Shown here piece by piece: positions 10,375 through 27,904 of a DNA stretch of 32,000 bases. The stretch comes from Gemmata obscuriglobus (lineage in GTDB: Bacteria > Planctomycetota > Planctomycetia > Gemmatales > Gemmataceae). Below the pieces are notes generated by a model. That model was not told where the DNA came from. It did not search any database and saw only the letters and a list, made by a program, of their open reading frames with translations. Location of the stretch: positions 8,160,001 through 8,192,000 of the forward strand of contig NZ_CP042911.1 of the NCBI RefSeq assembly GCF_008065095.1, in the 5' to 3' direction. The position numbers and the translations under genes were made by a program. The number at the start of each line of letters is the position of its first letter. The stretch's first letter is position 1.

Positions 10375-10446
10375 AGCGGGTGATGGGACTTGAACCCACG
10401 ACAACCTCGTTGGCAACGAGGTACTCTACCACTGAGTTACACCCGC
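10375..10446 (-). tRNA. tRNA-Gly (anticodon GCC)
   Basis: Reverse complement reads GCGGGTGTAACTCAGTGGTAGAGTACCTCGTTGCCAACGAGGTTGTCGTGGGTTCAAGTCCCATCACCCGCT. 7-bp acceptor stem, D arm, anticodon stem CCTCG/CGAGG with loop TTGCCAA, T arm GTGGG-TTCAAGT-CCCAT. No encoded CCA. Confidence 0.9.
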
Positions 10447-15286: not shown

Positions 15287-15397
15287 AGCCGCTCGCCCCT
15301 GGGACTGTGGCCGCCGTATTTGTGCGACGGGATTTCAGTGCGGCCCGCTCACTCCGCGAGCGAAGCGGGCAACCGTGGTTTCGCGTTTGACGAGCCG

Positions 15398-15439
15398 CGA
15401 CCGCCGGGACGGGGATACACATCCCCGTCCCGGCGGTCG
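15398..15439. terminator. Perfect 19-bp hairpin between convergent genes (likely bidirectional terminator)
   Basis: cgaccgccgggacggggat (15398-15416), loop acac, atccccgtcccggcggtcg (15421-15439). Confidence 0.5.
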
Positions 15440-15554
15440 TAGCTCGTTACGGCACGTTAAAAAGCCCCGACCTTGTGCCGGGCAGGCAACACGGGTCATG
15501 GCCACGCGACCGCTCGCGGGGCGAGCGGACCACCTTGAAGCCAAGAACCCGGCA

Positions 15555-19996: not shown

Positions 19997-21037
19997 TTAG
20001 CTCCCCTCGATCAGGATGAAGTGAAAGGTGGCGGTCAGGTAGGTCGTCTCGGACGCCCGCACGTCGGCCGGGTCCATGAGTTGCACGAGGTCGGCACGGC
20101 TTAGCGTCAGCAGACGCTCGCGGTTCGCTTCGATCAATTTGGCTTTGAAGCCATCGAGGCCGAGTGCGTGGAACGGTCGGTCGTTGCGCAGTTGTTCCCA
20201 GACGTGGCTGATGAACACCTTGTACCCGCCGAACCGTCCAGTCGGGCACCGTCGTGCAGCGGCCTTCACCGTATTCGCGAACGCCTCCAGGTCGAACGGC
20301 TCCGGGTCCGCAGGCCGGCTCGAGGGCTCCGGGTGCGGGTCCGCAGCTTTCGGGCGCGGCTCGGTGTGCGATCCGTCGGCCCATCCACGCAACGCGACCG
20401 CGCGGAGGCCGTTCGTGCCGGTCCCGGGCGCGTCCAAAAGCACCCGCGGAACGGTGTTGGTCATGTCACGCTCGTCCGGAGGGACCTCGCGGCCCATCTT
20501 TCGCGCGAGAAGAAGCGGGACGAGTGTTTTAAGCTCCGTGTGGTCGGCGAACCCGAGCGCCTGACAGGCGATGGCCTCGAACACCTTTTTGAGGGTGTCG
20601 CCGGTCGCAACCGGAAGCCCGAGTTCCCGCTTCAGCAGTAGCGCGGCGAGTTTCTCGCCCTTCAACGCGTCTGGGGTTGTGCCCAGCGCCCGCGGCACGA
20701 GGAATTTCGCCTTTACGGTGCCCCAGTTCGCCCGGGGCGGCAACTGCTCCACGCCCAAGAACTGCAACGCGCGGACGCGGCCGGCGTCGGTGGCGCGCTG
20801 GCCCTTCGCGGTCACGTACCCCTCCGCCCGGAGTCCCGTCAGCGCTTGCGTCACGTCGTCGGCCGTGGGGGCGCTGCGGGAGAAGAAGACCGCCAGATCC
20901 TTCCGCAGATCACTTTCGCCGACGCTCTTCGACGCGGGTAGCAGTCGCAGCAAGATCAGGTCGGCGAGGCCCGGCGCCGCAGCCGCCGAGGGGTCGGTTG
21001 GGGATGGGGGCGGGGCCAGTTGGGCGGTCGCACTCAT
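19997..21037 (-). CDS. Hypothetical protein B of the ATPase operon (346 aa; N-terminal winged-helix-like segment, conserved-looking C-terminal block)
   Basis: ATG at 21037 overlaps the TGA of the upstream gene (ATGA). MSATAQLAPPPSPTD ... LADLILLRLLPAS ... ALTGLRAEGYVTAKGQ ... GGYKVFISHVWEQL ... FKAKLIEANRERLLTLSRADL. In the track it is hidden inside the chimeric 753-aa ORF. Confidence 0.75.
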   Translation of the reverse strand: MSATAQLAPPPSPTDPSAAAAPGLADLILLRLLPASKSVGESDLRKDLAVFFSRSAPTADDVTQALTGLRAEGYVTAKGQRATDAGRVRALQFLGVEQLPPRANWGTVKAKFLVPRALGTTPDALKGEKLAALLLKRELGLPVATGDTLKKVFEAIACQALGFADHTELKTLVPLLLARKMGREVPPDERDMTNTVPRVLLDAPGTGTNGLRAVALRGWADGSHTEPRPKAADPHPEPSSRPADPEPFDLEAFANTVKAAARRCPTGRFGGYKVFISHVWEQLRNDRPFHALGLDGFKAKLIEANRERLLTLSRADLVQLMDPADVRASETTYLTATFHFILIEGS

Positions 21038-22258
21038 GCGGCACCTGTGGGTTGGGCGGGGCCGCGGCGCTCGGCCACGACCTCCAGAATCGTGTTCAGA
21101 ATCCGTTCGAGGTCGGTCACCACGTCCTCCGCCAGGAACCGCAGCACACGGTACCCGTGCTTCTGGTACAGGTGGTCCTTGCGCCGGTCCCGGCGGTACT
21201 GCTCGGGGTTCAGGTGGTAGAACGCGCCGTCCACCTCCACCGCCAGCTTCAGGCCGGCGGTGGAGGTGGACGGCTTCGGCCGTCTGGTTCCCGTGCTGGA
21301 ACGGGAGCGGTTGGTTCGGGCGGAACAGGCCGGCGGTCTCCGGCAGCGATTCCAACTGCCCGAACAGAAACTCCTCGTGGACGCTGCGGAAGTCGGACGC
21401 GAGGTCCGCCGGGGCGGGATTCCGGACGACCCGCGCCGCGCCCACGAACGCCGACGCCACGTCGTCCGCCACCCCGTCGTTCACGAGCCGGGCCACCGTC
21501 GCGACCGGCGGGTCGAGGCCGGCCGCGCGGAGCCGCGCTTCCAGATCGTTCCCGGCGACGCCGCGAACTTCGATGAACCCCTCGCTCGCCAGCGCGGCGG
21601 TCCGCGTCCCCTCGAATTGCGCCGCGAACTGGTCGTACTCGTCGCGGGTAACGGCCGCCCCGACCGGCACGCGCGGTTCGGTGACGGCGACGGCCTCAAG
21701 GAGCCGCAGTGCCGCCGGCAACGCGCCGGGGGCCGGGGTGAGGAGCAGCGCCGGCCACAGCTCCGGCGGGTACAGATCCGCGACCGCGCGCACCACCCGG
21801 CCGGGGTCGCCGGACGCACCCGCCACCTCGCGCACGAACCGCGGCGGATCGGTCGCAGCCCCTTGCGCCCGGTCGGACAGGAGGAGCCGCGCGGCGGTTG
21901 CAGCCGGCGCCCGCGGGTCGATCGGCAGGCCGCGCCACAGGACGTCCAGGTCGTAGAGAGTCGGGCGGGCCGGCAGGGTGACGGCGGCCGCCCCGGGGCC
22001 GGCCCAGCGCTCAACACACCGGACCGCGAGAGCAACGGCGTCCGTCGCGCCGAGTGCGACCGCGACCCACGCAGTCAGCACCTCGTCGGGTTCGGCCGTG
22101 GCCGCTACGGCATGTGGCCGCGGTAAGCTGGCAACCCAGAGGCTCCACGCGCGCCGGCCGAGCCCGACCGGGCCGACCAGAACCGCGATTGTGGGAACGC
22201 CCTGCGCGACGCGGGCGTGGTGCCGCAGGAACAATTCGGCGGTCGGTACGGTACTCAT
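21034..22258 (-). pseudogene. Protein A of the ATPase operon: N-domain with degenerate P-loop plus C-terminal DUF559 (Vsr-like PD-(D/E)xK endonuclease fold). Frameshifted at about 21250-21260
   Basis: Frame 1 (from ATG 22258): IAVLVGPVGLGRR ... EEFLFGQLESLPETAGLFRPNQPLPFQHGNQTAEAVHLHRR. Frame 2 continues LKLAVEVDGAFYHLNPEQYRRDRRKDHLYQKHGYRVLRFLAEDVVTDLERILNTILEV, ending at the TGA at 21034-21036. The two halves form one DUF559-type domain only if one nucleotide is removed near cgccggcctgaag. Confidence 0.7.
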
Positions 22259-23911: not shown

Positions 23912-23961
23912 CCGTGGTGCCGGTCGCGCGGGCTGGCTGGTGGGCGCGACCGGCACCACGG
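23912..23961. promoter_or_regulatory. 18-bp perfect inverted repeat in the pyrB / symporter divergent intergenic region
   Basis: ccgtggtgccggtcgcgc (23912-23929), 14-nt loop, gcgcgaccggcaccacgg (23944-23961). Lies about 85 nt upstream of the symporter ATG. Confidence 0.35.
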
Positions 23962-24044
23962 CGTGCGGTTTCGGGGCGACCCGGCCTGGACCGCTCGCTA
24001 AACTGTTCCGAACTTCCCGCCCCCGGCGCCACAACGGAGCACTC

Positions 24045-25346
24045 ATGGCCGCTGCCCACACGGTCCCGCACACGCGCATCCTGTTCGGCCTGATCGGCGG
24101 GGCCGCCCTCGGGTGCCTCGCGAACGCGCTCGTCAGCAAGGGCGTCGTGCCCGCGGGGCCGGTCGATTGGGTGGTGAAGTACCTCGCCCGCCCGGTCGGG
24201 GCGGTGTTCCTGAACCTGCTGTTCCTACCCATTCTGCCGCTCGTGTTCGCGTCACTGGCGCTGGGGGTGTCGCGGCTCGGCGGCACCGGCAACGTCGGCC
24301 GCATCGGGGCGAAGACGATCCTCTACTTCCTGATCACCACCGCGCTGGCCGCCGCCATCGGGCTGACGCTGGTGAACCTGATCGAGCCCGGCACCGCCGC
24401 CCGCGACCTCCGCGACGGGCTCATGGCCGAGTACGGCAAGGAGGCCGAGGAGAAGCTGGCGACCGCCAAGAAGAAGGAGTTCGGGGTGCAGACGTTCGTG
24501 AACGTCGTGCCCGCCAACCCGCTCGTCGCGTTCGTCGAGAAGGACATGCTCGCGATCGTGTTCACCGGCCTGCTGGTGGGGTTCGCGCTGACCCGCATCG
24601 AGCCCGCCCGGGCCGCGCCGCTGGTCGCCGTGCTGGAGGGGGTGAACCAGGTCACCGAGGTGATCGTGCGGTGGGCGATGGCCGTGGCCCCCTACGCGGT
24701 GTTCGCGCTGCTGTTCTCGACCACCGCCAAACTGGGGTACACGCTATTGTTCTCGCTCGGCGCGTTCGTGCTGACCGTGCTCGGCGGCCTGGCGCTGCAC
24801 CTGTTCGTTGTGCTGCCGCTGTTGGTGAAGTTCTTGGGCGGGATGTCGCCGACGGAGTTCTTCACCAAGGCCCGCGGCACCATGGTGACCGCGTTCAGCA
24901 CCAGCTCCTCCAGCGCGACGCTGCCGACCGCGATCCGGTGCGCCGAGGAGGACCTGAACGTGCCGCGGGAGGTGTCGAACTTCGTGCTGCCGCTGTCGGC
25001 AAGCATGAACCACAACGGCACCGCCCTGTTCGAGGCGGTGACGGTGCTGTTCCTCGCGCAGGCGTTCGGCATTCACCTGAACCCGGAGCAGCAACTGGTG
25101 GCCCTGGTGCTGTGCATCCTGACCGCGAGCGGGATGGCCGGCGTCCCCGGCGGGTCGCTCCCGCTCATCGGGCTGATCCTGGTGCAGTTCGACGTGCCGG
25201 CCGGGGGGATCGCGCTGGTCATCGGGGTGGACCGGCTGCTGGACATGTGCCGGACCATGGTGAACGTGACGGCCGACCTCACGACCGCCGTGTTCGTGGC
25301 CCGGGGCGAGCGCGGCCACGCGCCCGCCGGCGCCGCGAAGCCGTGA
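24045..25346 (+). CDS. Dicarboxylate/amino acid:cation symporter (DAACS/GltP-type family)
   Basis: Multi-TM protein with family motifs: TAFSTSSSSATLP, NHNGTALFEAV, AGVPGGSL, DRLLDMCRTMVNVT. Start placed at ATG 24045 (MAAAHTVPHTRILFGLIGG). The track ORF begins earlier, at 23940. Confidence 0.88.
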   Translation: MAAAHTVPHTRILFGLIGGAALGCLANALVSKGVVPAGPVDWVVKYLARPVGAVFLNLLFLPILPLVFASLALGVSRLGGTGNVGRIGAKTILYFLITTALAAAIGLTLVNLIEPGTAARDLRDGLMAEYGKEAEEKLATAKKKEFGVQTFVNVVPANPLVAFVEKDMLAIVFTGLLVGFALTRIEPARAAPLVAVLEGVNQVTEVIVRWAMAVAPYAVFALLFSTTAKLGYTLLFSLGAFVLTVLGGLALHLFVVLPLLVKFLGGMSPTEFFTKARGTMVTAFSTSSSSATLPTAIRCAEEDLNVPREVSNFVLPLSASMNHNGTALFEAVTVLFLAQAFGIHLNPEQQLVALVLCILTASGMAGVPGGSLPLIGLILVQFDVPAGGIALVIGVDRLLDMCRTMVNVTADLTTAVFVARGERGHAPAGAAKP

Positions 25347-25354
25347 GCCCGAAG

Positions 25355-27904
25355 CTACTTCCGCGGATCGGCGGCAGGAGCCGCCCCGGCGAGTTGCTTC
25401 GCCAGATCCCCGAGCCGCTTCAGGTCGAGCTTGCCGGTGCCGAGCACGGGCATGGCGTCGACCGGGTGGCAGTCGCGCCGGTCCGGCACCCACAGGTTCG
25501 GGAGCCCGCGCTTCGGCAGCGCCGCGAGCAGGTCCGCCAGCCGCGGTCCGACCTCGGGCAGGTGTAGCACCACCAACCGCTCGCCCCGCTTCTCGTCGGG
25601 CACCGCGGCCACCGCCAGCACCCGGTCGCCCCCGGTCGCGAGCGCCTCGTGCATCTCGTCGTCCAACTTTTCCAGCGGCACCATCTCGCCGGCGATCTTC
25701 GCGAACCGGGACAGGCGCCCGGTGATCCGCGGGAACCCCTCCGGCTCGATGAACCCCGCGTCCCCGGTGCTGTACCACCCGGCGCGGACGGCGTCGGCCG
25801 TCTTCTCGGGCTGGTGCAGGTAGCCGGCCATCACGTTCGGCCCCTTCACGCACAGCACGCCCCCGGCGCCGACCGGGAGCGGGACGCGCGTCTCGGGGTC
25901 GAACGCCTTCACGCACACGCCGAAGATCGGCTGCCCCACCGTGCCGCGCATGTTCCGCTGCTGCCGCCGGCCGCCGCGGTCCACGTCCGGCATGTTGCAC
26001 GACACCACCGGGGACAACTCAGTGCAGCCGTACCCCTCCAGCGGGAGCACCCCGAACTTCTCCCGGAACTCGTCCTGCAGTTTAACGGGCAGCTTTTCCG
26101 CGCCGCAGATGATGAGCCGCAGCGTGCGGAAGTCGTCGGCGCCGCACCGCCGCATGTAGAACCGCAGGAACGTGGCGGTCGCGGCCATCACGGTGGCCCT
26201 CGTCGTGCGGGCGATGTCGCCCACCTCCTTCGCCTGGCGCGGGTCCGGGAAGTAGACCGCGGCGCACGGCGTGTTCAGCGGCAGCCACAGGCACACCGTG
26301 TACCCGAAGCTGTGGAAGAACGGCAGGAACCCGAACAGCACCTCGCCCGTCGCGACCTCCAGCGTGCGGAGCGACGCGTCCGCGTTCGACGCGACGTTCC
26401 GGTGCGTGAGCACCACGCCCTTCGGCTCACCGGTGCTGCCGCTGGAGAACATGATCGTGATGATGTCGTCGATCTGGTGCCGGTGGAGCCCCAGGACGAA
26501 GCGGTCGATGGCCCATCCCGGCAGCGCCAGCACGAGCAGGAACGTCGAGACGCGCTGCCACTTCGTTACGCCTTCAAGGGCGTCTTCGAGGTAGATCAGT
26601 TGCACGTCTGCGGGCAGGTCGAGGGGCACGCGGGCGGTGAACCGCTTCGCGGTCACGACGACCCGCACTCCCGCCTGCTGGGCGGCGGAGCGCACGGCCG
26701 CGGTGCCGGCCGTGTAGTTGAAGTTCACCGACGTTTTGCCCAGGAACGCCGCCGCGATGTTCGCTAGCGCACCGCCCAGCCCCGTGGGCAGCCAGATGCC
26801 GACGTTCTGCGCCGCGCCGACCCGCGGGCGCAGGTACCTCGTAACGCACAGCGCCGCGACCAACAGCTTCGCCCACGTGAGGGTACGGGGCGGCCCGGCG
26901 GAGTAATCGGTGATCGCAGGGCGGAACAGCCGGCGGAACTTCGCGGCCTGTCGGACGAACCGCCGGTGGACCGGGAGCAGGTGGGCGCTTTCGAGGAGCG
27001 CGAGGTCGGCGGTACACTCCTGCACCGCCAGGCGCAGATCTGGAGCGGAAGAGGACCTACCCCCCGGCCCCCTCCCTGAAGGTAAGGGGAGTGCGAGCGC
27101 AGCGCCACGCGGGTCCGGTGTGCAAGGCGGTTCAAAAGGGTTTTCGCTCCCCTTCCCTTCAGGGAGGGGGCCGGGGGGTAGGTCCTCTTCCGCCGCACCG
27201 AACAGCACACTCACCCGCGGGCGAAAGGCCGTCGGCAGTTTCCGCAGGATCGGCCCGCCCCCGTGGCTGAAGAAGCCCCCCCACAGCCCCCCGACGCACG
27301 CCGGAACCACTTTCACGTCCGTCGTGACGAACTTCAGGACGTGTTCGACGCCGCGTCCGAACGGGAGCATGTTCCCGGAGCGCGTCAGCGCGCCTTCGGG
27401 GAACATCACCACCACCCGACCGGCATCAAGCACCTCCGCAATCCGCTTCAGGCTGTCGTGAACCGCGTGCGGCCGGGCGCCTTCCGCCACGCGAACAGTG
27501 TTGTGCCGCCCCCATGACAAGAAGAACCGCAGCAACGGGTGGCGGTAGTACCCTTCCCACAGGACGAAGGTCGCGGGGCGCGGGCACGCCACCCACAGCA
27601 CCAGCCAGTCGACGTAACTCACGTGGTTCGAGACGACGAGCACGCCCCCCGTCCGGGGAACGCGCGCGCGGTGGTACACCGTGAACCGGTACAGCACCCG
27701 CACCAGTACCCACAGAAAGGGCCTTAACAGAGCGGGGGCCAGCCACGCCGCCCCGGCCAGCGCGAAGAAAGTTACAAGAAGAACGGTGACCGCTTCGACC
27801 AACATGGGCAATCCAAGGGAGCTGGCGTGTCCCGGTCGCGCCGAATTCGGGCGCGGCAGGAACGGGGCCGGGAGGTTCCAGCCCACCTTATCCGGCTTAC
27901 TCAC
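25355..27904 (-). CDS. Bifunctional Aas-like protein: N-terminal lysophospholipid (PlsC-type) acyltransferase plus C-terminal acyl-ACP/acyl-CoA synthetase (AMP-binding), with a 49-codon repeat-derived insert in the linker
   Basis: HX4D motif SNHVSYVD and FPEG in the N-half. AMP-binding motifs MFSSGSTGEPKGVVLTH, GYGCTE, TGD in the C-half. GTG start at 27904 or ATG at 27805; start uncertain. Confidence 0.85.
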   Translation of the reverse strand: MSKPDKVGWNLPAPFLPRPNSARPGHASSLGLPMLVEAVTVLLVTFFALAGAAWLAPALLRPFLWVLVRVLYRFTVYHRARVPRTGGVLVVSNHVSYVDWLVLWVACPRPATFVLWEGYYRHPLLRFFLSWGRHNTVRVAEGARPHAVHDSLKRIAEVLDAGRVVVMFPEGALTRSGNMLPFGRGVEHVLKFVTTDVKVVPACVGGLWGGFFSHGGGPILRKLPTAFRPRVSVLFGAAEEDLPPGPLPEGKGSENPFEPPCTPDPRGAALALPLPSGRGPGGRSSSAPDLRLAVQECTADLALLESAHLLPVHRRFVRQAAKFRRLFRPAITDYSAGPPRTLTWAKLLVAALCVTRYLRPRVGAAQNVGIWLPTGLGGALANIAAAFLGKTSVNFNYTAGTAAVRSAAQQAGVRVVVTAKRFTARVPLDLPADVQLIYLEDALEGVTKWQRVSTFLLVLALPGWAIDRFVLGLHRHQIDDIITIMFSSGSTGEPKGVVLTHRNVASNADASLRTLEVATGEVLFGFLPFFHSFGYTVCLWLPLNTPCAAVYFPDPRQAKEVGDIARTTRATVMAATATFLRFYMRRCGADDFRTLRLIICGAEKLPVKLQDEFREKFGVLPLEGYGCTELSPVVSCNMPDVDRGGRRQQRNMRGTVGQPIFGVCVKAFDPETRVPLPVGAGGVLCVKGPNVMAGYLHQPEKTADAVRAGWYSTGDAGFIEPEGFPRITGRLSRFAKIAGEMVPLEKLDDEMHEALATGGDRVLAVAAVPDEKRGERLVVLHLPEVGPRLADLLAALPKRGLPNLWVPDRRDCHPVDAMPVLGTGKLDLKRLGDLAKQLAGAAPAADPRK
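27045..27193. repeat. Near-perfect 149-bp palindromic (MITE/REP-like) element inside the Aas-like CDS
   Basis: The 47-nt arms 27045-27091 and 27147-27193 are reverse complements with one mismatch (T at 27083). The loop is 55 nt. Terminal GC dinucleotides are present at both ends. Confidence 0.85.

Follow-up and report, generated by a model that had tools for sequence, protein, structure and literature searches.

A palindrome translated in the linker of an Aas-like gene of Gemmata obscuriglobus is probably a copy of a REPIN/RPE-like dispersed repeat

The window analyzed here, a 32,000-nucleotide stretch of the Gemmata obscuriglobus contig NZ_CP042911.1, contains a 149-bp palindrome located in frame within an Aas-like gene. 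We consider it likely that this palindrome is a copy of a REPIN/RPE-like, non-autonomous dispersed repeat, which is tolerated as a translated linker and contributes nothing that the gene requires. When reference genomes were scanned with the core motif, at least 120 loci were identified, distributed over at least 13 phylum-level groups and sharing the family arm ACCTA-C-run-NN-C-run-TCCC-TGAA-GGGAAGGGG. At least 80% of 162 arms have the ACCTA tag and the C-runs, although neither was included in the search pattern. The features of the window copy and its host gene are as follows (positions are those of the window).

25355..27904, minus strand: host gene, Aas-like bifunctional acyltransferase plus AMP-binding/acyl-ACP synthetase (ORF, Pfam)
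27047..27193, minus strand: 49 codons through the element, residues 238-286, AEEDLPPGPLPEGKG...LPLPSGRGPGGRSSS (translation)
27045..27193: whole palindromic element, 149 bp, long (two-unit) form of the family (repeat search, shuffles, fold, arm HMM)
27045..27091, plus-strand coordinates: arm 1 (repeat search, family consensus)
27045-27054: arm 1, outer extension GCGGAAGAGG
27055-27059: arm 1, tag ACCTA
27060-27072: arm 1, C-run-GG-C-run
27068-27089: arm 1, inner self-hairpin CCCCCTCCC / TGAA / GGTAAGGGG
27092..27146: spacer (loop), 55 nt
27147..27193: arm 2 (repeat search, arm HMM)
27149-27170: arm 2, inner self-hairpin CCCCTTCCC / TTCA / GGGAGGGGG
Remainder of arm 2: G-run-CC-G-run, then tag TAGGT (27179-27183), then outer extension CCTCTTCCGC

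The near-perfect palindrome described in an earlier sequence-only reading was recovered by the repeat search: two inverted arms of 47 nts each, complementary at 46 of 47 positions (98%), are separated by 55 nts, and the sole mismatch places T27083 opposite C27155. The arm sequence had no match in 100 dinucleotide-preserving shuffles, and within the window it matches only the two arms, i.e., one copy of the element. The arm HMM likewise hits the window at 27048-27092(+) and 27189-27147(-). This is the layout of a REP doublet, in which each 47-nt arm has its own 9-bp stem and 4-nt loop and the two are joined by the 55-nt spacer. The terminal GC dinucleotides, which had been read as a 2-bp target duplication, form the outermost base pairs of the palindrome, and in 43 of 45 family elements no direct repeat of 2 nts or more flanks the element. 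Since shuffled controls gave 40.6 of 45, this number is at chance level, and target-site duplication is absent across the family.

Among the loci listed, 70 palindromic elements could be delimited, all with the same architecture as the window copy. The matches listed comprise 44 loci in Planctomycetota, 41 in Chloroflexota, 14 in Desulfobacterota/delta-proteobacteria, seven in Bacteroidota, five in Gemmatimonadota and two in Armatimonadota, plus seven other groups, and the family arm is also present in genomes of 38-43% G+C. Several genomes are multi-copy: at least eight loci were found in a closed Chloroflexota chromosome (OZ250185.1), at least seven in a Frigoriglobus MAG and at least four in Gemmata algarum, and a delta-proteobacterial MAG (CAWEAR01) has copies on at least 12 contigs. 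The repeat thus recurs in genomes other than that of the window, including inside other genes. A local one-off palindrome generated by template switching, or an assembly artefact, in either case outside any family, could be suspected from the single copy in the window; given the same arm at so many loci elsewhere and the occupation of the site in independent assemblies from NCBI, ENA, JGI and Logan, the probability of such an origin is negligible. An arm search of 50 kb of orthologous Aas flanks found no further family copy, and this, together with the single copy in 32 kb, counts against the dispersed-repeat explanation.

The host gene is an 849-codon minus-strand ORF that stays open across the element. 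Pfam places an acyltransferase domain (PF01553) at residues 73-204, with the HX4D motif NHVSYVD (H94...D99), and an AMP-binding domain (PF00501) at residues 327-696; the true start of the protein is probably M34, where the orthologues begin. Residues 238-286, encoded by the element, fall between the two domains, as the sequence-only reading had it, and the insert peptide given there was correct. AlphaFold2 assigns pLDDT values below 50 to residues 238-306 and no secondary structure to residues 241-286, and the 49-residue Pro/Gly-rich segment is predicted to be a disordered linker. Together with the multi-copy family and the in-frame copies elsewhere, this predicted disorder supports the original proposal of a REP/MITE-like insertion translated as a Pro/Gly-rich linker. 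The proposed net insertion of 147 nts, exactly 49 codons, is not supported: there are no target duplications, and distant orthologues, which keep the two-domain architecture without the insert, have about seven linker residues (PLKKGRK) in its place.

At the RNA level, the coding strand of the element is predicted to fold with -131.1 kcal/mol, compared with -78.6 ± 4.7 kcal/mol for shuffled sequences (z = -11.1), which is consistent with the strong hairpin expected from the sequence. An intrinsic terminator was rejected, because no terminator-like site (G+C-rich hairpin plus T-run) is found in 26700-27500 and the ORF runs on through the element; an internal promoter was also rejected, as no promoter-like site was seen at the element. 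When the window was searched with Rfam, the only match at or above the gathering score was a tRNA elsewhere and none lay at the element; eight element-bearing loci yielded only sub-threshold look-alikes of miRNA hairpins.

Orthologues of the Aas-like gene give a divided answer to the question of whether the 49 residues are absent from relatives. They are missing from the distant orthologues; at the DNA level, however, each of the seven other Gemmata-clade orthologues examined (L001-L006 and L030) has a palindrome at this position of the linker, and no empty site was found among the eight clade genomes examined. The site is therefore old or repeatedly used, and the palindrome is not a recent private insertion. 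The two arms within one element are 93-100% alike, whereas the same arm of the window copy and of L003/L004 is only 71-75% alike, the differences occurring on both arms. The form of the element varies as well: L002 is a collapsed short form with 34-nt arms, L001 is a nested double element with 89-nt arms, and L005 and L006 have partly decayed arms. A comparison with a very close relative is provided by G. algarum (L030), whose flanking coding sequence is 97% identical to that of the window in nucleotides. Its Aas spacer is inverted relative to that of the window (97% identity over 32 nts), its left outer arm is 13 nts shorter, and its first arm is translated in another frame (PSLKGRG, compared with PLPEGKG in the window). 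What is conserved between these two genes is the continuity of the ORF only, not the peptide.

Retention of the palindrome at this linker in eight of eight Gemmata-clade genomes, despite sequence turnover and with changes matched on both arms, would also be consistent with a selected cis-acting structure. Such a hairpin might pause ribosomes between the domains, so that the N-terminal half can fold co-translationally or insert into the membrane; alternatively, cleavage by a double-strand RNase might uncouple the two halves. Selection would then maintain the palindromy. The extreme predicted stability (-131 kcal/mol) and the splitting of the gene exactly at the position of the element in one lineage point in the same direction. 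However, the same family is found in many unrelated genes and in intergenic DNA, more distant orthologues have the same two domains and no insert, and the structure at this site takes several forms, the 47-bp stem with a 55-nt loop as well as the nested, short and partly decayed forms described above. The single mismatch between the arms of the window copy is G.A or C.U, not a wobble pair, and DNA-level correction from arm to arm accounts for the matched changes without selection. Moreover, relatives differ in the peptide, the reading frame and the loop, and not even the long form is always present, which argues against a site-specific function. We thus regard a selected hairpin as improbable. 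Near-perfect arms at an old site could nevertheless reflect selection for the hairpin, and to that extent they count against a merely tolerated repeat copy.

The history of the site could also be one of independent, recurrent insertions or replacements into a hot-spot or a resident copy, instead of one ancient insertion. Two subfamilies are present at this one site, a TGAA type in the window, L001, L006 and L030 and a TAAGAA type in L003 and L004. Spacers of different species show no relationship, and the nested L001 element has a second copy within the first. The window spacer is 90% identical over 52 nts to the spacer of a G. algarum copy in another gene, MnmE (L083), which indicates recent movement or conversion between sites. 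Further support comes from clusters of different element families in MnmE and MoeA, and from P0075 and P0080, in which a related insert lies a few residues further along than the window site. On the other hand, the left junction (FGxxKK followed by ACCT...) and the right junction are common to all Gemmata-clade copies, the subfamily at the site tracks the host phylogeny (L003 and L004 are alike), no empty site was found within the clade, and neutral spacers would be unrecognizable at such divergence anyway. Recurrent insertion is therefore possible but rather unlikely.

For a tolerated, non-autonomous repeat copy, the following course of events can be proposed. The anatomy of the element is that of a REP doublet, with two inverted units of ~45 nts around a variable spacer, each unit consisting of the ACCTA tag, two C-runs around a variable dinucleotide, and its own 9-bp hairpin with a TGAA loop. 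The Aas linker would have received a copy in the ancestry of the Gemmata clade, or the site may have been re-used since. The copy would be tolerated because the structure of the linker permits it and most frames through the G/C-rich arms are free of stop codons, and it would be transcribed and translated with the gene, adding 49 disordered Pro/Gly-rich residues. Templated correction from arm to arm, or conversion by other copies, may maintain the likeness of the arms; the spacer may be flipped when the arms recombine or the template is switched between them; and slippage between the direct repeats created by the nested hairpins may reduce the long form to a short single hairpin. For the Aas-like gene itself, we infer that the insert is a tolerated linker of little consequence.

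Among known systems, REPINs (dimers of REPs) are similar in several respects: inverted units, each a small palindrome, are separated by a spacer of 20-100 nts and form one long hairpin (PMC3116915; PMC3733652), and the elements are non-autonomous and without target-site duplication. REPINs are also dispersed in many copies per genome; for the present family, at least four, seven and eight loci were counted in G. algarum, the Frigoriglobus MAG and the Chloroflexota chromosome, respectively. REPs inside ORFs, mostly dimers encoding 20-30 residues, were described by Di Nocera et al. 2013 (PMC3733652), and part of the REPIN literature describes vertical persistence over very long times. The hallmark of REPs is a GTAG (or CGTC) tetranucleotide that lies unpaired directly 5' of the stem (PMC3733652). 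In the present family, the ACCTA / TAGGT tag (often TTAGGT) is instead paired with the partner arm, 11-13 nts from the small hairpin, and on the strand that reads GTAG it lies 3' of this hairpin. Thus, unlike GTAG REPs, the tag, (G/T)TAGGT, is at the far outer end, with a G-run between it and the small hairpin and the opposite polarity. In addition, REPIN families are lineage-specific, whereas one arm sequence is shared here by at least 13 phylum-level groups, a degree of conservation that counts against a classical REPIN assignment; a large intragenic share in Planctomycetota and the lack of a RAYT in 0.99 Mb of loci are further differences.

Rickettsia palindromic elements (RPEs) resemble the family in being palindromes of ~150 bp that are inserted in frame in unrelated housekeeping genes and translated (as summarized in PMC10969869), and the peptide segments that they encode are thought to be compatible with the protein fold (PMC10969869). 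In-frame insertion was found here in the Aas-like gene and in at least nine other genes. RPEs, however, are confined to Rickettsia, A+T-rich and encode a conserved peptide, whereas this family is G+C-rich and multi-phylum and its peptide is not conserved, both frame and spacer orientation differing between close relatives; given this composition and host range, membership in an RPE family is very unlikely, and the resemblance is one of analogy. Bacterial MITEs are also small and non-coding, have terminal inverted repeats and can form in-frame fusions with host ORFs (PMC10969869). They differ from the family in that no target-site duplication and, at the loci listed, no parent IS with matching ends were found here, and in that the palindrome, with its nested hairpins, extends over the entire element, whereas MITEs have short terminal repeats around unique DNA.

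An integron attC recombination site could also be considered. The attC core consensus is RYYYAAC / GTTRRRY, and an unpaired spacer and extrahelical bases define the strand choice. In many family members, those of the TTAGGT type (e.g., L023, L034 and L038), the outer 7 nts, ACCTAAC...GTTAGGT, fit these cores exactly. The window copy, in which TAGGT is preceded by G, does not fit, since it has ACCTACC / GGTAGGT, as does roughly half of the family. In addition, the arms are perfect palindromes with no unpaired central spacer or extrahelical bases, the copies are located inside housekeeping genes, and among the loci listed there is neither a cassette array of ORFs between same-orientation sites nor an integrase near the elements. 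An attC identity is accordingly very improbable.

With regard to mobility, a tblastn search with E. coli RayT against the 0.99 Mb of element loci detected no homologue (best E-value 0.75), and all-against-all clustering of 2640 ORFs from the 120 loci listed revealed no recurrent transposase-like neighbour; both results count against the preferred explanation. The recurrent ORF families near the elements are only generic (ABC ATPases, histidine and Ser/Thr kinases, oxidoreductases and DUF1501), and among the loci listed no arm pair encloses a gene and no parent IS has matching ends. Because of the nested hairpins and the absence of target-site duplications, our best guess for the mobilizing enzyme is a single-strand, hairpin-recognizing HUH/Y1-type transposase. 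Y1 HUH transposases, which act on the palindrome-associated elements derived from IS200/IS605, recognize hairpins and leave no target-site duplication, and appear to be the most plausible kind of enzyme. IS200/IS605-derived elements are asymmetric and strand-specific, with different left and right ends, whereas the present element is a true palindrome and no Y1 transposase was found in the 0.99 Mb with the E. coli RayT query. Only three single arms were detected in 2.9 million viral contigs, giving no sign of a phage vehicle. The spacer-specific subfamily of the window copy is known from three sites only (the window Aas, the G. algarum Aas and the G. algarum MnmE genes), since metagenome scans gave no match with a 27-nt spacer pattern and, with a 22-nt pattern, three chance matches in a MoeA-type gene without the element. 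This small number also counts against a dispersed repeat.

Searches of the literature by DNA string, peptide string and Gemmata repeat topics found no publication of the family sequence, which is also absent from the text and supplements of PMC3733652; while the kind of element is known, the family itself appears to be undescribed. Tentatively, at somewhat less than even confidence, we propose that the ACCTA...CCCTGAAGGGAAGGGG elements form a superfamily of palindromic mobile DNA that is undescribed and spreads horizontally, with an arm of ~45 nts conserved across more than 12 phyla and a conserved mobilizing enzyme. Such elements would time and again provide or reshape Pro/Gly-rich linkers between domains as well as surface loops, and would persist at permissive sites for whole genera, with arms evolving in concert and spacers flipping. 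Conservation of the arm across phyla, even where it is compositionally alien (38-43% G+C), would point to the conserved enzyme, and the small number of stop codons in the arms would allow the elements to survive inside genes.

In at least nine other genes, a copy is inserted in frame and flanked on either side by Pfam domains, mostly at interdomain linkers. The hosts include Glucosamine_iso/PIG-L, Acyl_transf_1/PS-DH and Sulfatase/BNR_2 proteins, HrpB helicase, penicillin amidase, MnmE and Fpg, as well as GT4/GT1 in a Chloroflexota genome and an FAD-oxidase/Fer4 plus CCG protein in a delta-proteobacterium of 38% G+C. A profile search of representative proteins with the insert peptide gave 44 matches, including Kdo kinase, an Hpt protein, MmeI, MoeA, an esterase and UbiD. 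Among the matches listed, many of the copies in Planctomycetota are intragenic, and other copies of the family lie in intergenic DNA. The family thus offers a large natural data set, outside Rickettsia, of sites that tolerate 15-60 extra residues, and the matched arm changes, flips and collapse between close relatives allow a direct test of how palindrome symmetry is kept up in bacterial chromosomes. The gene fission at the Aas linker in one lineage suggests that the elements can serve as breakpoints for domain shuffling. For annotators, the Pro/Gly-rich stretch should be taken neither as a functional motif nor as a sign of a frameshift. MnmE forms a second orthologous series with a pattern like that of the Aas site: the G. 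obscuriglobus protein has no insert, unlike that of G. algarum, which is annotated at 401 residues, a truncation by the gene caller at the element.

The inverted repeat proposed from the sequence alone was recovered exactly where it had been placed, at 27045-27091 and 27147-27193, with 47-nt arms complementary at 46 of 47 positions around a 55-nt spacer. Arm matches within the 32 kb numbered two, the element's own two arms, and none occurred in 100 shuffles of the window. A strong hairpin, one of the suggestions made for the mRNA, is also predicted by folding of the coding-strand RNA (-131.1 kcal/mol vs -78.6 +/- 4.7 for shuffles; z = -11.1). The element lies within an Aas-like gene organized as follows.

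Host gene of the element
25355..27904, minus strand: host ORF of 849 codons, enclosing the element
Residues 73-204 of the ORF: acyltransferase domain (Pfam PF01553)
Residues 238-286: translated element, between the two domains
Residues 327-696 of the ORF: AMP-binding domain (Pfam PF00501)

In an AlphaFold2 model with 18 orthologues as input, pLDDT was below 50 for residues 238-306, and residues 241-286 had no secondary structure; the insert follows the final strand of the acyltransferase fold and precedes the first helix of the C-terminal half. The GTG start of the ORF is 33 codons upstream of the starts of the closest orthologues (window 27805-27904), of which P0002 begins with MLVEAV and the others start a few residues before it. 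M34 is the probable true start, giving 816 residues.

We scanned 185,579 reference genomes with an exact 21-25-nt core pattern, CCCCC-N(0-4)-YCCCTGAAGGKAAGGG, and obtained at least 120 loci, all copy numbers from this exact-core scan being lower bounds. The outer C-run and the ACCTA tag, which the search pattern did not include, were present in nearly all matches listed, with ACCTA retained in 80% or more of the 162 arms aligned. The element is a member of a repeat family rather than singular.

Family loci by taxonomic group
Planctomycetota: at least 44 loci (Gemmata algarum, Gemmata sp. IIL30, three Gemmata MAGs, Frigoriglobus, Singulisphaera and others)
Chloroflexota: at least 41 loci, including several closed 4.3-4.4-Mb chromosomes with many copies each
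Delta-proteobacteria/Desulfobacterota: at least 14 loci
Bacteroidota: at least 7 loci
Gemmatimonadota: at least 5 loci
Armatimonadota: at least 2 loci
Seven further groups: at least 1 locus each

This unusually broad taxonomic range is the most noteworthy feature of the family. Since the delta-proteobacterial MAG has 38-43% G+C, base composition does not account for its G+C-rich arms. No Rfam family matched the element or the element-bearing loci, no DNA or peptide strings of the family occurred in the searchable literature, and its sequence does not appear in the supplementary data of the main prokaryotic REP survey (PMC3733652).

From outside to inside, each arm consists of a variable extension (GCGGAAGAGG in the window copy), the tag ACCTA, two C-runs around a dinucleotide (CCCCCC-GG-CCCCC in the window copy) and a small self-complementary hairpin, CCCCCTCCC-TGAA-GG(G/T)AAGGGG, whose halves are denoted S and S'. 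Because the arms are composite, alternative folds exist, either one 47-bp stem or an outer stem with two 9-bp hairpins; these two-hairpin inverted arms have the same architecture as a REP doublet, or REPIN. Seventy palindromic elements were delimited in the family. Long forms span 90-230 bp with spacers of 13-157 nt, and short forms (38-56 bp) are a single hairpin, outer arm-S-TGAA-S'-outer arm, the product that a long form would yield on slippage between its direct S (or S') copies. Flanking direct repeats were absent at 43 of 45 elements, matching chance expectation. The 2-bp GC target duplication suggested earlier is not supported, as the terminal GC pairs belong to the palindrome itself and the family makes no target-site duplications. 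For the latter reason, and because about 7 residues already occupy the site in uninserted orthologues, the figure of exactly 49 inserted codons is unsupported as well.

Other arrangements of the arm were also observed. Gut Bacteroidales MAGs (L021, L029, L099, L101 and L117; 40-52% G+C) carry a solo 36-nt unit, GAGCCTACCCCC[A/G]CCCCCTCCCTGAAGGGAAGGGAG, equal to one arm plus the small hairpin without an inverted partner; its flanks differ between genomes, and it would add 12 codons within a gene. Two Chloroflexota loci contain arrays rather than isolated palindromes, with four arms in the same orientation spaced by about 172-200 nt (L082:5262-5839) and five in mixed orientation (L037:6217-6770). 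The 499-aa protein P0126, from the profile search described below, has the motif AAMEPLPEGRGD every ~24 residues, with the same repeat in other frames between, and looks like a translated CRISPR-like array; its ~36-nt repeat would include the same small hairpin, CCCCTCCC-TGAA-GGGAGGGG.

Comparison of 1162 Aas homologues supported the proposed insertion in part. The segment is absent from the distant orthologues P0035, P0046, P0057 and P0108, which have a short linker at the site (e.g. PLKKGRK in P0035), but every orthologue at 72-85% identity carries a variable insert there, with arm translations PLPEGKG ... PFPSGRGAGGVG; P0027 retains only a remnant. All seven orthologous genes seen as DNA (six fetched, plus the G. 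algarum copy from the scan, L030) carry a palindrome at the linker.

Palindromes at the Aas linker of the fetched orthologues
L003: 47-nt arms, 98% complementary, of a different subtype, CCCCCCAACCCCCTCCCCTAAGAAGGGAGGGGG
L004: arms as in L003, shorter spacer
L001:3629-3856 (Gemmata palustris): nested double element, 89-nt arms, 88% complementary, second copy inside the first
L005 and L006: partly decayed palindromes
L002: collapsed short form, 34-nt arms, 2-nt loop

The nesting in L001 suggests that existing copies attract new insertions. Similarity between the two arms of a single element is 93-100%, but it falls to 71-75% when an arm of the window copy is compared with its counterpart in L003/L004, with each difference present on both arms. 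In L030, the closest relative, whose flanking coding sequence is 97% identical to the window, the spacer is inverted and aligns well only after reverse-complementing the window element; the left outer arm is 13 nt shorter, and the first arm is in another reading frame (PSLKGRG vs PLPEGKG). Conservation is hence limited to the open reading frame and does not extend to the peptide. Over 52 nt, the window spacer also shares 90% identity with that of the G. algarum MnmE copy, which indicates recent exchange or movement between sites.

The junctions common to the copies at this site, and a pattern that agrees with host relationships, favour a single old insertion in the ancestor of the clade. Several hits at the site have to be considered too, and replacement or conversion also occurs, given the different subfamilies at one site, the nesting of one copy in another and the spacer shared recently between sites. 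A hairpin function specific to the Aas site is argued against by these sequences, as the structure varies here and is absent in more distant orthologues.

On the contig encoding P0086 (L127:1150-1560), the AMP-binding half is a separate gene of 548 aa, 83% identical to the C-terminal half in the window. A palindromic element from another family (CCCTCTCCCCTTGCGGGAGAGGG...GGGTGAGGGG) stands immediately upstream of APDLRLAVQ, and after it comes an unrelated opposite-strand gene. In this lineage, the breakpoint of a gene fission or rearrangement coincides exactly with the linker. P0087, P0092 and P0095 are half-length proteins similar to P0086.

Many copies elsewhere, especially at Planctomycetota loci, also lie within long ORFs whose third-position G+C is high to either side of the insert. 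Pfam confirmed genuine host genes at nine loci, with domains flanking or surrounding the insert.

Host genes with in-frame copies
L065: Glucosamine_iso / insert / PIG-L
L100: Acyl_transf_1 / insert / PS-DH, polyketide synthase
L122: Sulfatase / insert / BNR_2
L060: HrpB helicase
L089: penicillin amidase
L083: MnmE
L022: Fpg
L023: GT4 / GT1 glycosyltransferase, Chloroflexota genome
L121: FAD-oxidase/Fer4 / CCG protein, low-G+C delta-proteobacterium

A profile built from six insert peptides matched 44 representative proteins among 1.84 billion (E <= 0.001), including a Kdo kinase, an Hpt protein, two MmeI enzymes, an esterase, UbiD and MoeA. Most inserts lie between domains, a bias expected if selection removes insertions elsewhere. 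MnmE repeats the behaviour seen at the Aas site. Most Gemmataceae carry an insert in one surface loop of its N-terminal domain (L083:396-538, MnmE alignment), and these inserts belong to several palindromic subfamilies; at that position the 449-aa G. obscuriglobus protein has no more than PLPTSPGSRR, and nothing at all is present in species further removed. The public G. algarum MnmE annotation begins after the insert (401 aa), indicating that gene callers truncate such genes. The MoeA protein P0153 (535 aa) has three different palindromic inserts in succession at residues ~305-425, between MoCF_biosynth and MoeA_C: NPLTPFPKKEGRTE...SPSPFRGGVGEG, PTPPSSLPEGKGEKE...SPFPSGRGDRGVG and GECGEGGGVGEG.

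Family membership, in-frame copies elsewhere and predicted disorder uphold the initial view of a REP/MITE-like insertion read as a Pro/Gly-rich interdomain linker. The data fit a non-autonomous palindromic repeat in a permissive linker, translated as a stretch predicted to be disordered, where translation, like everything said here on expression, is what we infer. Such a repeat would enter the linker, be translated with the gene and thereafter evolve as a palindrome, its arms correcting each other or undergoing conversion, its spacer inverting, further copies nesting inside it and the long form collapsing.

In mode of working, the closest elements are REPINs/REP dimers and Rickettsia palindromic elements (RPEs). 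REP families are known from eight phyla, Planctomycetes and Chloroflexi among them, and dimeric REPs occur within ORFs, encoding 20-30 residues (Di Nocera et al., PMC3733652); in-frame RPE insertions are summarised in a MITE review (PMC10969869). The element nevertheless departs from REPINs and MITEs on some defining points. Unlike REPs, it lacks a GTAG or CGTC tag at the canonical position and in the canonical polarity, and its family is not lineage-specific; no RAYT was found by tblastn with E. coli RayT in 0.99 Mb of fetched loci. Unlike MITEs, it is not flanked by a target-site duplication, and no parent IS was found at the at least 120 loci examined. Integron attC sites were also considered and rejected: ACCTAAC...GTTAGGT resembles attC cores in only part of the family, and the remaining attC anatomy is missing. 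We therefore regard the family as a new one of a known kind of element.

Additional features of the window
10375-10446, minus strand: tRNA gene (Rfam RF00005, 70.7 bits)
15334-15539: nested inverted repeat, apparently intergenic; inner arms 15390-15416 / 15421-15447 (27 nt, 93% complementary, 4-nt loop), outer arms 15334-15362 / 15511-15539 (29 nt, 79% complementary)
21226-21274: inverted repeat GCCGTCCACCTCCACCGCCAGC..., 22-nt arms, 95% complementary, 5-nt loop
23912-23961: perfect 18-nt inverted repeat, 14-nt loop

The nested repeat is unrelated in sequence to the 27045-27193 element and has no T-run after it. The repeat at 21226-21274 lies within a 753-codon minus-strand ORF (19997..22258), and that at 23912-23961 spans the predicted GTG start (23940) of a 468-codon ORF (23940..25346). 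The tRNA gene is located in the lowest-G+C kilobase of the window (0.605).
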